The notes under the pieces are model-generated. The model was not told the DNA's origin and ran no database searches. It saw only the letters and a program-made list of their open reading frames with translations. This document shows, piece by piece, positions 8,546 to 27,073 of a DNA stretch of 28,355 nucleotides (position 1 is the first letter of the stretch; each line of letters opens with the position of its first letter). Source of the DNA: Chloroflexota bacterium (GTDB lineage: Bacteria; Chloroflexota; Limnocylindria; Limnocylindrales; CSP1-4). The stretch lies in the NCBI GenBank assembly GCA_043778745.1, contig JAYWFP010000120.1:1-28355 (forward strand), written 5' to 3'. The translations under genes were made by a program, and so were the position numbers.

Positions 8546-8560
8546 CGTCAATCGCGGGCC
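8546..8560. repeat. Target-site copy 1 (left TSD)
   Basis: CGTCAATCGCGGGCC, identical to 26162-26176 and abutting the left TIR. Confidence 0.93.
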
Positions 8561-8592
8561 GGGGTAGTAGATAGACGGTCTGGAAGTTGCCG
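8561..8592. repeat. Casposon left terminal inverted repeat
   Basis: GGGGTAGTAGATAGACGGTCTGGAAGTTGCCG. First 14 nt and last 7 nt are identical to the reverse complement of 26130-26161 (26/32 ungapped). Confidence 0.9.
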
Positions 8593-8750
8593 CGCGGGCG
8601 TTCCTGCATCGGGCATTCCGCCCCCCCCTTTGTGTCTGGTGATCAACCCAAGAAGTACAGCTGGACAATCCTATGTGACCAGTTATGCTCTCCTCACCGC
8701 GCCAGCCAAGCCGACCGGATAACCCGGAGGAGGCGCGTCCGGGGGGGATC

Positions 8751-9893
8751 ATGGGGCTTCGCGTTTCGCGCCTTCGCGTCGTCGCGTTAGGGGTCGTGGC
8801 ATTGGTTCTAGCGTCTTCGCCTCTCGCGGTGGAGGCCGCGTCGCCTGACTGGGGCCCCGACGTAGCAGATAGTTCGACGCTGACGGGATCAGTCGTTGCC
8901 AGCGGCCGAGTCATCGGTGTCGCCGCCGTTTCCGGGAGTCAGGTCGTCCTCCTTGCATGGCCTCGACAGGACGTCCTGTCCTCCATGGTCCCCGGCGACT
9001 CGTTCAAACTTGTTCCCGTGGGGAAGGCGCTTGTTGGCAGTGACGGGAGCTTTGACCTTCGCATTGACCCGAAGGCCAATATGGACGAGTTCCTAGAATC
9101 AGACGGTCGTGCGAACTTGGACATAAGGGTCACATCGGCCGCGGGTATGACCACCTACGGGTTACCCGTGCAGCGTGACAGTCAGGGGAGGGTCTCTTCC
9201 GACCCATCGAACGTGGTCATTGATGCACGCGCTGGAGCCACTCCGCCTGCCCAAGGGTCCCAGTCCGTTCTTGCCCCCACCGTGGACAAGTGGTGGACGG
9301 AGACGCTCGTGTTGAACTATGTCCCACAGTGGGATGTGGTTGGTGAGCTATATACCGGACCGCACGCGACAGGAACGTTCCGGTACCAGGTGCAAGCCTC
9401 CACCACGCTTGGGATCGGCGTGTCGGCGACCGGGGCCTTCGGGAGTTGGTCGAGTTCCGGCACGGTCAGCTGGGCCATCAATTCCACGCAGAATTTCGGC
9501 TCGTACGGGATCAATTCGTTGAAAGTCCTCCAAACGAAGTTCCAATACGGTAAGTACAGGGAGAGTTGCTTTACGGAGTTTGGGCCGTGTGGCATCACCT
9601 ATCAGACTAGAGTGAATCAGTTTGTTGGTGGCACGAACAATTACAACACTCCCTCAGCACCGACGGCAACGATGTGCACGACATACCTTGCGGGTACCGG
9701 AGCGGAGACGGACACCGCGACGGCCGTCACGTTCTCAAACGGAATGAGCATGGGGTCGCAAATTGGTGTCGACCTCTCGACCCGTTCGGGGTTCTCGACG
9801 ACCGTCAAGTTGTCATGGACCTATGTCACCGCCGGTTCGCTCTGTGGGACCAACAACTTCCCGCCAACCGCAAATCGTGTGGTAGCCAAGTAG
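8751..9893 (+). CDS. Secreted Ser/Thr-rich hypothetical protein
   Basis: ATG 8751 gives MGLRVSRLRVVALGVVALVLASSPLAVEA (signal-peptide-like); long open frame rich in beta-strand-like S/T/G segments. Confidence 0.7.
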   Translation: MGLRVSRLRVVALGVVALVLASSPLAVEAASPDWGPDVADSSTLTGSVVASGRVIGVAAVSGSQVVLLAWPRQDVLSSMVPGDSFKLVPVGKALVGSDGSFDLRIDPKANMDEFLESDGRANLDIRVTSAAGMTTYGLPVQRDSQGRVSSDPSNVVIDARAGATPPAQGSQSVLAPTVDKWWTETLVLNYVPQWDVVGELYTGPHATGTFRYQVQASTTLGIGVSATGAFGSWSSSGTVSWAINSTQNFGSYGINSLKVLQTKFQYGKYRESCFTEFGPCGITYQTRVNQFVGGTNNYNTPSAPTATMCTTYLAGTGAETDTATAVTFSNGMSMGSQIGVDLSTRSGFSTTVKLSWTYVTAGSLCGTNNFPPTANRVVAK

Positions 9894-9904
9894 GCGTTCA
9901 TCGG

Positions 9905-10462
9905 ATGTCGCCTGTCGATCGCCAAAGCGCCGTGGGCCTCGGAATCCTCGTCGCTGCGCTCGGCTCGCTCATCCTCGCTTCAGGTGCAGGTGGTCTCGTT
10001 GGCGGCACGATCCCGCTGCCAACCGGGCCGCTCCAGCCAGGCTCCAACTTCAAGGTGACACTGCCCCTTGCATCTGGACAGGTCGCCACCTGGGGAACCG
10101 TACTTCCTCGAAATGCGCTGACGGCTGATCTCATCCTTGAGTCGGTCCATGCCGAAGATCCGAGCCCAGGAATGGGCATCAGCGGGATACTCGTCGGTTG
10201 GCCCGACCTCGACGGTCACGCCACTGGAACAGCGCTTGGCTTTCCGCCCGATGGTACGACGACGGGACCAGTTCAAGGAACCCGACTTCCAGGTGTTGGC
10301 TCGACAGCCGCCCGGGACGTGCAAGTCCTCTTTGGCGTCTTTCTCAAGTCCGGGTATGACACCGGTGTGATCCATGGGATTCGGGTCCGATACCGGCTTG
10401 GCTCGACGCAGTTTGAGATCGTTCTGCCCGATTCCCTTGAGACAACGAACGCCCAGGACTAG
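9905..10462 (+). CDS. Membrane-anchored or secreted hypothetical protein
   Basis: ATG 9905, 11 bp after the previous stop; hydrophobic N-terminus VGLGILVAALGSLILA. Confidence 0.6.
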   Translation: MSPVDRQSAVGLGILVAALGSLILASGAGGLVGGTIPLPTGPLQPGSNFKVTLPLASGQVATWGTVLPRNALTADLILESVHAEDPSPGMGISGILVGWPDLDGHATGTALGFPPDGTTTGPVQGTRLPGVGSTAARDVQVLFGVFLKSGYDTGVIHGIRVRYRLGSTQFEIVLPDSLETTNAQD

Positions 10463-25257: not shown

Positions 25258-26040
25258 ATGAAACCGAGTGACGAACTTCTAGTGGACGCCGCCGCGCAAC
25301 GCCTAACTCTCACTAGCGTTGAGGGGATCGTTCGCGTGTGGCAGGACCGCGCTCGGGCTGCTAAGGCCTGGCAGAGCTGGGTGGCTAGTCGACCACCGAG
25401 CAGCGTGACCGGACTTACGCCCCCGGGTCGGACCCCAGCACGTTTCCGATTCCTGGACCGGATCAGGGGAACGGTCGGGTCCTCATCTGCTGGGATGACC
25501 AAGGGAGTAAGGACCGCGACCCCGTTTGACGAGACCCCACCGAACATCACCTCGCGGATTTGGCTCGATCGGCCGACTCGTTGGCGCGTCGAGACCACGG
25601 CGGACGAGGGACAGGCAACCGGTGTCCTTGTGATCAATGGTGGGCGCTGGGATTTCGCGGTCGAACGTCGCGACCATCGGGGGGCCGAGACCCAGGAGGC
25701 CGGCGACACGTCGCCGTTGACTTTGCACGCCAGCGTCGCGGCCATGATTGACGCGGACAGCATTCTTGGGAAGCTGACCCTCGAGCCAGCTGGGATGGTC
25801 GTCCACGCAGGGCGCAACTGCCACCGTCTAATTGGTTTGCTAATCGACCCTGATGATTTCCCTGTGTGGCCCGCTGACTCGTATGACTTACTGCTGGACA
25901 GCTTGATGGGAATCCTGCTTCGTTTCGAGGCCCGTTCTGGTGGAGCAGCGTACGCACGGGCGGAGTTCACTGATGTAACTTCAGGAAGGACCATCCCGGC
26001 GGACGTATTCGAATTCGGGACCTCTCCAAAGTCTTTGTAG
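25258..26040 (+). CDS. Hypothetical protein, possibly LolA/RseB-like fold
   Basis: RIWLDRPTRWRVET, LLLDSLMGILLRFE and terminal IPADVFEF resemble LolA-like proteins; weak, by eye. Confidence 0.5.
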   Translation: MKPSDELLVDAAAQRLTLTSVEGIVRVWQDRARAAKAWQSWVASRPPSSVTGLTPPGRTPARFRFLDRIRGTVGSSSAGMTKGVRTATPFDETPPNITSRIWLDRPTRWRVETTADEGQATGVLVINGGRWDFAVERRDHRGAETQEAGDTSPLTLHASVAAMIDADSILGKLTLEPAGMVVHAGRNCHRLIGLLIDPDDFPVWPADSYDLLLDSLMGILLRFEARSGGAAYARAEFTDVTSGRTIPADVFEFGTSPKSL

Positions 26041-26129
26041 CGTCTCGGACAAAGTCAAAGGGCATGTGGCGCATCCTCGGCTCCCTGCGGACTCCGTGGC
26101 CGTCCCCTAAGTCCCAACCGCCAGGCCAT

Positions 26130-26161
26130 CGGCAACTCCAGGCTCGCCTATCTACTACCCC
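26130..26161. repeat. Casposon right terminal inverted repeat
   Basis: Reverse complement is GGGGTAGTAGATAGGCGAGCCTGGAGTTGCCG; abuts target copy 2. Confidence 0.9.
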
Positions 26162-26176
26162 CGTCAATCGCGGGCC
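26162..26176. repeat. Target-site copy 2 (right TSD)
   Basis: CGTCAATCGCGGGCC, identical to 8546-8560; has a TIR on both sides. Confidence 0.93.
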
Positions 26177-27058
26177 GGGGTAGTAGTCTGGTCTGAAGTT
26201 GCCGCGGCCGGCCGGGCGGCGCCGACTCGGAGCCCGAAGCGGGAAGGCGCCGAAGGGCAGACGAGCTACGGAATAAGAGAGCGCCAAGGGTCTCGCTTCT
26301 TATCGATGCGGCGAACCAGCGCATGGCACGGCATGTCGTGGGCCTACCGCGACAGCGTTCTGACACAGGGAGGGGGTGCCGGACAGGAGCGAGCGGGGAT
26401 CATGTCCTTACGGATTGAGATCATGGATTGCATTTCCGTTTTGGGTGCTTAGCATCTGTAAACGTACTGGGGGGGGATCATCTCCTACTCATATGTTGAC
26501 GAGCATGACGTGTGGAAGACCGGATTTGGGACAATGGCGCAGGTGATCTCTCGCGGATGGCGACCCTGCTATGCGTCGACCTGCTAAGGGCACCATCGCG
26601 GGGTCCCGATCGAGCATCTGGATTGCCTTCCTGCTTCTCGGTTGTGCGAGCGTACCGCCGACGAATGTATTCACCGGACCGCCTGCGTCCGCCAACGAAT
26701 TCGTGTTGCCTACGACGGGCCCGTTGCAAGGATGCGCCGGCGTCGAGTTCGACGGCCGGATCCTGCTTGACGTCAAGAACGGCGAGACTCTGGCCCGTCG
26801 GCCAGCCGGTGACCCGCTTCGGATATTCTGGCCGGAAGGCTTCACGGCGCGATTCGACGGCGCAATCTGGCGGATCATCGACGACCGTGGAAAAGTCTTC
26901 GCGTCAAGTGGCGAAACCATTTCCGACTATCTGCGAGGCAACTGGCGCGGGCGCAGCGTATGTACGACAACCCAAGCCGTCTATGTCTACGACTAGCTGT
27001 ACCGTACTGACTTCAGTGGAGAGTCTGGGCTGCCACGGCCCGATTTCCGCGAAACACT
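26177..27058. mobile_element. One-ended remnant of a second casposon (882 bp)
   Basis: Begins with the variant left TIR GGGGTAGTAGTCTGGTCTGAAGTTGCCGCG (26177-26206) and ends at target copy 3; no recognisable right TIR. Confidence 0.75.
26571..26996 (+). CDS. Putative lipoprotein
   Basis: Basic N-terminus, IWIAFLLLG-C lipobox-like site, 141 aa. Confidence 0.62.
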   Translation: MRRPAKGTIAGSRSSIWIAFLLLGCASVPPTNVFTGPPASANEFVLPTTGPLQGCAGVEFDGRILLDVKNGETLARRPAGDPLRIFWPEGFTARFDGAIWRIIDDRGKVFASSGETISDYLRGNWRGRSVCTTTQAVYVYD

Positions 27059-27073
27059 GGTCAATCGCGGGCC
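27059..27073. repeat. Target-site copy 3 (gene-proximal)
   Basis: GGTCAATCGCGGGCC, 14/15 match; contains the stop codon of the host gene. Confidence 0.88.

Follow-up and report, generated by a model that had tools for sequence, protein, structure and literature searches.

Tandem casposons that share a target site duplication (TSD) have been described in Methanosarcina spp., where one copy is degraded and remnants consisting of solo terminal inverted repeats (TIRs) occur, and the authors drew parallels to CRISPR and to Tn7 islands (Krupovic et al. 2016; PMC4779613). In the case of the casposase of Aciduliprofundum boonei, in vitro work identified a target composed of the TSD segment and an essential, one-sided upstream segment (the 3' end of tRNA-Pro), which was likened to a CRISPR leader (PMC5137440, PMC6614799); Beguin et al. 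(2016) set out this leader analogy and predicted that a newly arriving casposon would insert upstream of its predecessor (PMC5137440). Additionally, an in vivo tandem was reported for MetMaz-C1, although as a single event in an experimental archaeal system and not as a natural multi-element array (PMC10359463). In this study, we describe a locus on contig JAYWFP010000120.1 of a Chloroflexota bacterium, which represents the whole of contig C120 (28,355 nt, hereafter the window) of a 1.9-Mb, 67%-complete metagenome-assembled genome (MAG). The locus is a two-element casposon array at a site-specific attachment site, and it probably grew on the side of the Rrf2-suf promoter, which belongs to an iron-sulfur-cluster operon. 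The Methanosarcina elements are archaeal casposons of family 2 at a tRNA-Leu gene or an intergenic site, for which only two-element arrays are described (PMC4779613), whereas the host is here a bacterium, the target is the -35 box of a promoter, up to four elements make up an array and the insertions can be ordered by strain polymorphism. Similarly, the candidate leader differs from that of A. boonei: it would consist of the Rrf2-suf promoter's -10 box and spacer, as proposed solely from genome comparisons and population data.

The 14-nt target GTCAATCGCGGGCC occurs exactly three times in the window (at 8547, 26163 and 27060), compared to 0.07 matches expected by chance, and none of 100 shuffled sequences reached three. 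As 15-mers, the first two copies (T1 and T2) are identical, with the identity extending over 25 nt so as to include the start of the TIR, while the third (T3) has its sole mismatch at its first base, 27059. Two elements, named A and B, occupy the intervals between these copies (Table 1), and T2 alone separates the right TIR of A from the left TIR of B, the two elements thus being directly adjacent. A preliminary description of this DNA had proposed three target copies (the third matching at 14 of 15 positions), TIRs on both sides of the middle copy, and a decayed, gene-proximal element consisting of a left TIR plus 882 bp. All of its coordinates proved to be correct: the three copies were re-found, the right TIR of A and a second left TIR stand to the left and right of T2, respectively, and B is an 882-bp stump with one TIR.

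Table 1. Features of the casposon locus and its surroundings (window positions; strand as +, - or none (.)).
Feature	Position	Strand	Basis or remarks
SufC gene, after the Rrf2 gene	7059-7934		NCBIfam SufC, 3e-94
Rrf2-family regulator gene, first of the suf operon side	7931-8491	-	NCBIfam Rrf2 superfamily, 2e-33
Promoter-like site TTGACG-18 nt-TAGACT, directed towards Rrf2	8522-8551	-	0 expected in shuffles
Target copy T1 (leader-proximal)	8546-8560	+	14-mer/15-mer repeat search
Element A, complete 17.6-kb casposon	8561-26161	.	32-nt TIRs at 8561-8592 and 26130-26161
Family B DNA polymerase (PolB), 1008 aa, ending in a helix-turn-helix (HTH) tail	17899-20925	-	Motifs read in the product
Casposase (Cas1 homologue, 520 aa, C-terminal HTH)	22971-24533	+	Pfam Cas_Cas1, 4e-45
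Target copy T2, between the right TIR of A and the left TIR of B	26162-26176	+	Junction also in independent contig L110
Element B, 882-bp remnant, best read as the left end of an older related element	26177-27058	.	Left TIR 26177-26207
141-aa open reading frame (ORF) in B, lipoprotein-like signal, without family match	26571-26996	+	Called as a gene in 15 contigs
Target copy T3	27059-27073	+	27060-27073 identical to T1/T2; includes the terminal codons of the regulator gene with its stop (27061-27063)
3' part of an 890-aa regulator-like gene	27061-28355	-	Full-length product with guanylate cyclase, NB-ARC and AAA_16 matches; gene table of L110

Element A is an autonomous, true casposon. It is bounded by TIR arms that are 81% complementary and by a 15-nt target duplication, and its Cas1-family integrase is not linked to a CRISPR-cas locus, with neither Cas2, further cas genes nor CRISPR repeats found in the window. 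The best relative of the casposase in the PDB is 6OPM (1e-23; entry title 'CRISPR-associated endonuclease Cas1'), which we take to be the casposase of Methanosarcina mazei. The mobility of the element is apparent from the empty sites of two genomes of the same genus (G007 and G011) and from the absence of A from the major allele of the population.

To establish which element was inserted first, we aligned contigs from four public sediment runs, belonging to two studies, to positions 8300-27400. In all four runs, contigs join 8545 directly to 26162 (i.e. flank, target, B, T3 and gene, without A) at depths of 65, 42, 24 and 6, while the interior of A has depths of ~10, ~6, 0-10 and 0-5 in the same runs; A reaches ~15% of the flank depth, and the B-only allele is the major form in the four runs. 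In the latter two runs, the left half of A is essentially without depth and its right half is covered by a related element rich in single-nucleotide polymorphisms (SNPs). Furthermore, when ENA and Logan contigs were searched for the B ORF, the B-only allele was recovered in at least five assemblies, namely L113, L115, L116, L117 and L118, the last of which is 97.5% identical and represents a strain diverged by 2.4%, where B-only is the sole form seen. One sample harbours a B-only contig together with a 17,573-bp contig that corresponds to A alone. B is present in every allele seen, and the sole lineage in which A and B were observed together has a B region identical to that of the B-only contigs. 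Given that the B-only allele is common and is shared by the diverged strain, and given the low depth of A, these data indicate that B is old and fixed across strains and that A was acquired recently, by a minority, at the suf-proximal copy, i.e. the newest element stands next to the leader, at T1. The preliminary description had proposed precisely such a polarised insertion, with the intact element on the suf side, and had suggested a comparison of the locus across strains; that comparison supports it, since the B-only form is widespread, A is a minority form at the promoter-side copy, and the same order is found in other genomes of the family.

Variation at the site was also evident within the genus. 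G007 and G011 carry the promoter flank, a single target and the regulator gene, and G023, in which the gap between Rrf2 and the regulator is short, looks empty by gap size. Insert remnants are present in G001 (two target copies 824 bp apart) and G005 (a decayed TIR adjoining the flank), extra DNA of ~1.4 and 0.8 kb occupies the site in G018 and G020, respectively, and G013 and G015 possess TIR elements of 2.3 and 3.9 kb without Cas1. As regards runs X5 and X7 (of the second study), a related casposon with many SNPs covers 15300-26161, which is the PolB-Cas1 half, and the cargo half (8900-15300) is almost without depth; it appears that casposons that are otherwise alike exchange their cargo modules.

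The exact junction of right TIR, target and left TIR was found in ten species genomes, and arrays reach up to four elements (five of 15 genome-wide matches to the tandem junction were discarded as chance palindromes in unrelated taxa). Read from the leader, the array of G273 consists of a full casposon followed by a second TIR element, that of G317 of a casposon (whose Cas1 is intact and whose PolB was matched as four pieces) followed by a degenerate TIR, and that of G252 of an 8.4-kb element followed by a degenerate TIR. Contig 86 of G153 carries a 19.4-kb full casposon, elements of 10.6 kb and 8 kb, and a fourth that extends beyond the contig end. In G232, a Cas1-bearing element is followed by one of 3.9 kb and by a third, with T0 identical to T1 and T2 bearing changes at 4 of 15 positions, while G193 possesses two 3.8-kb elements and a 0.56-kb stump, with T0, T1 and T2 identical and the outer T3 changed at 2 of 14 positions. 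In each of the five arrays in which both the flank and a Cas1 gene are visible (G000, G273, G317, G153 contig 86 and G232), the Cas1-bearing element is the first from the leader, for which the chance under random placement is roughly 1 in 96. The use of target divergence as a clock was abandoned for the window, the copies being identical over 14 nt; it is informative only in G232 and G193.

A survey of the window's GTDB family identified the same TIR pattern in 54 of 401 genomes, belonging to 15 of 49 genera, while the reversed control returned none (the tally of 54 includes one unpublished genome, G121, on which the other claims do not rest). Among 82 TIR ends, GTCAA stands at the far end of the target in 44 and the complementary arrangement is found in 27, and the target thus has a single orientation. 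Of the non-tandem ends of the GTCAA (leader) type, 25 of 36 lie beside Rrf2-operator promoters of Rrf2-sufC or SufU, the neighbouring Rrf2, SufC or SufU genes being confirmed, and others lie beside a Ni-superoxide dismutase (Ni-SOD) gene, an ArsR gene and so forth. The geometry of target, flank and promoter recurs at these 25 Rrf2-operator loci and at several other promoters, and the orientation of the target relative to the promoter flank is constant at all 36 loci, while the casposon itself occurs in both orientations relative to the flank. Conservation across the loci is confined to GTCAA(C/T)G and the -10/operator region; the spacer and the remaining target bases differ between species, indicating that the insertions are independent events. 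Insertion in this family is site-specific with a fixed target orientation, and the arrays are polarised in their order and decay with distance from the flank.

Several further types of element were encountered in the survey. At least two more TIR subtypes, starting GGGGTAGTTG and GGGGTAAAGGGG, share the target and the arrays with the GGGGTAGTAG type (G153:C86 18819-38239 and G232:C36 ~21730-21760), and the PolB of the G153 element is just 44% identical to that of the window. Many elements of 1-4 kb have casposon TIRs and a target duplication without Cas1 or PolB, occupy the same promoter sites and join arrays (G409:C9 9548-11320; G193:C9 8514-16151; G013:C42 (L024 4516-6851); G414:C91 1743-2801; G335:C112 42-1868), and they look like non-autonomous 'mini-casposons'. 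Each side of a 1.3-kb TIR element in G201 (C3 1452-2778) bears leader-like sequence and a target with GTCAA first, the flanks being inverted and not direct repeats, with a Ni-superoxide-dismutase gene adjoining one side; two occupied sites may have recombined, or an inversion may have taken place.

Within the window, the attachment site coincides with a sigma-70-like promoter of Rrf2-suf, whose -35 box (8546-8551) lies inside T1 and whose -10 box and spacer constitute 8522-8545, such that the first five bases of the target, GTCAA (TTGAC on the other strand), form the -35 box. The regulator gene on the far side is convergent, and in the window's genus its TGA stop lies within the TTGAC of the target. 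Following the insertions, the promoter is intact by means of copy 1 and the stop codon by means of copy 3, and the suf promoter thus survives insertion because the duplication restores its -35 box; selection would maintain copy 1 for its -35 box and copy 3 for the stop codon of the regulator. The 3' end of a gene was considered as a general rule for the target and rejected, as the far neighbour differs in other genera while the promoter side is constant.

By analogy with A. boonei, the casposase would read the junction of flank and target and would make cuts staggered by 14-15 bp, thereby duplicating the target. After insertion, only the copy joined to the flank would be a good target, the inner copies presumably being poor ones because they are preceded by a TIR, and each newcomer would therefore enter at the flank and push older elements away, where these would decay. 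On the same analogy, this bacterial casposase may recognise the flank as a leader. The segment 8521-8545 had previously been put forward as that leader, and this proposal holds as far as sequence data go: the suf-side flank is indeed the conserved side at the 25 Rrf2/suf loci, but the segment itself is the -10 box plus spacer of the promoter, and the spacer is not conserved.

A number of observations weigh against growth of the array at the promoter-side end. Conservation of the flank is limited to its -10/operator part and to the GTCAA of the target, with the 18-nt spacer varying, and may reflect promoter/operator function and not recognition by the casposase. The similarity of a TIR to the search pattern is a poor measure of age given the existence of several TIR subtypes, an element with atypical TIRs lies nearer to the leader than one with typical TIRs in contig 86 of G153, and the leader of G409 is off the contig. 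In addition, the population data directly order a single insertion event, that of A; the three target copies of the window, being identical over 14 nt, display no age gradient; and the B-only allele could in principle arise from A plus B by recombination between the 25-nt direct repeats, as a T1 x T2 exchange would yield exactly the B-only sequence. The last three points would equally be expected of a real array without polarity, in which A entered one of two equivalent copies or B-only reflects the loss of A, and in which the order seen in other genomes is due to chance and ascertainment. We consider this explanation improbable, albeit the best of those that compete with polarised growth. The loss of A is less parsimonious owing to the B-only allele of the 2.4%-diverged strain, and the restriction of A plus B to a lineage whose B region matches the B-only contigs argues in the same direction. 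Furthermore, a Cas1-bearing element adjoining the leader in five of five arrays is not readily attributed to random placement, and divergence is greatest in the outermost target of both G232 and G193.

A further possibility is that the casposase is guided by a protein bound to the promoter, either the Rrf2 repressor on its operator near the -10 box or RNA polymerase, and not by the flank sequence alone. Such guidance, which we regard as somewhat less probable still, would resemble that of Cas1-Cas2 to the CRISPR leader by IHF, or that of Tn7 by TnsD. If true, arrays at suf promoters would represent a natural, host-factor-dependent and leader-polarised 'proto-CRISPR' that is still growing today.

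The nature of element B was assessed separately. It contains no casposon genes, and nothing resembling a TIR was found before copy 3. B shares a 40-bp block (26998-27040) with a TIR element of G128 (89% conserved; L083 (G128:C7) 11118-11155), located equally far from the left TIR in both, the surrounding DNA being unrelated and the block without an Rfam match; Rfam families were likewise not found in or around B. Based on its left TIR, which occupies its left 31 nt and is 4 nt shorter than that of A, and on this block at equal offset, B most plausibly represents the remaining left end of a longer, older, related casposon-type element. The single mismatch at 27059 would then be due to a deletion of the remainder of B that ended within one base of copy 3. 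When B and the 824-bp insert of G001 were compared by BLAST to all loci retrieved, only the TIR region and one 40-bp block matched, and the two are consequently not demonstrably the same ancient insertion. It might be argued from the lack of a right TIR and of casposon genes, and from an ORF without a family match, that B is native intergenic DNA (a lipoprotein gene) beside the solo TIR of an excised element. This is very unlikely, since such DNA is absent from the empty sites of G007 and G011, the target copies bound B exactly, its left end is a TIR, the block near its right end is shared with the G128 element at the same offset, and comparable distal stumps exist in G193, G317 and G252.

The tandem array is real and independently assembled: a MEGAHIT k141 assembly (ENA ERZ27314322; contig L110, 42,052 bp) has the order flank-T1-A-T2-B-T3-gene with nine SNPs relative to window positions 6578-28355, and thereby contains the whole 26162-27073 arrangement, for which the preliminary description had raised the question of an assembly artefact. 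A chimera of flank-T-A-T-gene and flank-T-B-T-gene joined through the 25-nt repeat is the least credible explanation of all and is largely refuted: the window is a MAG contig in which the depth of A is a minor share of that of the flank, Logan contigs end at 8545 and 26161 and hence leave the junctions of A unbridged, and the exact A-T2-B junction was not found in JGI metagenome contigs (in an uninformative scan that may omit records near the window's own genome), but the separate assembly holds the full order, its k-mer of 141 is far longer than the 25-nt repeat and would not be misled by it, contigs joining A straight to the gene were not seen, and the same junction architecture recurs in ten other genomes.

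With respect to the remaining content of element A, the PolB product displays the motifs Exo I (FDTET), A (DFTSMYPT), B (KTLASGGAYG) and C (CDTDS) and has weak DNA-polymerase matches in PHROG; as Pfam, NCBIfam and PDB sequence searches returned no match, the polymerase assignment is based on these motifs. The cargo encodes a D12 methyltransferase, a DndB-like protein of 768 aa, a trypsin-like protease, UDG and DprA. Two parts of it have a defence-related look, namely 11680-14884, where the D12 adenine methyltransferase gene overlaps that of the DndB-like protein (with a weak Hjc-type nuclease match), and 16184-17859, where the DprA gene is followed by that of a protein with a weak PRTase match. 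One HTH domain is present four times in A, at the C-termini of Cas1 (24380-24533) and PolB (17899-18190) and in ORFs at 15013-15231 and 11231-11491. The DNA of the former ORF (72 aa) is 83% identical to the polB tail, as part of a 275-nt repeat (15020-15294 / 17915-18189), and the latter (86 aa) is ~40% identical to the Cas1 tail; this recurrent HTH may be a shared module for binding the TIRs or the target. A tRNA-Thr predicted by ARAGORN at 24239-24327 lies inside cas1 and is probably a false positive, and a tRNA target is not involved. Outside the array, a 15-nt / 63-nt tandem repeat (2284-2407) is located within a long ORF (1305-3098), upstream of its cysteine-synthase domain.

An HNH endonuclease gene is reported for every casposon in family 2 and in family 3 (PMC4046053), the latter being the bacterial family sensu Krupovic 2014, whereas no HNH family was found among the ~20 ORFs of A scanned with Pfam, some of them down to an E value of 0.5. 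The locus shares with CRISPR arrays the duplication of a repeat at each insertion, polarised growth on the leader side and an integrase homologous to Cas1. However, it is not a CRISPR array: such arrays have regular repeats of ~23-50 bp, spacers of similar size and cas2 or effector genes, whereas the repeats are here 14-15 bp and the segments between them 17.6 kb and 0.88 kb (0.9-19-kb mobile elements taking the place of 'spacers'), without Cas2, effector genes, short regular spacers or any sign of processing into guide RNAs. Tn7 at attTn7 (glmS) resembles the present system in inserting site-specifically beside a conserved essential locus without disrupting it, and in the accumulation of elements into an island, but differs in its transposase and in its targeting protein, TnsD. 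The idea raised in the preliminary description is an already published model that is supported here, and not a new kind of system (PMC5137440, PMC4779613, PMC10359463). Under the casposon-origin model of CRISPR, a Cas1 integrase guided by a flank on one side is expected to build a polarised array of target copies, and the published support that we found consists of the two-element tandems of Methanosarcina, in vitro work on one archaeal enzyme and one in vivo mini-casposon event. To these may be added a naturally occurring bacterial system whose newest insertion is still polymorphic, such that its position can be read directly, together with arrays of up to four elements in relatives and a new type of target, the -35 box of a conserved, Rrf2-regulated suf promoter. 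The locus also offers a concrete enzyme, TIR and 45-bp target for the study of leader dependence in a bacterial casposase. Relative to the published model, the additions are thus a bacterial lineage in which no HNH was found (PMC4046053), a promoter -35 target, multi-element arrays and a polymorphic insertion that displays polarity directly.

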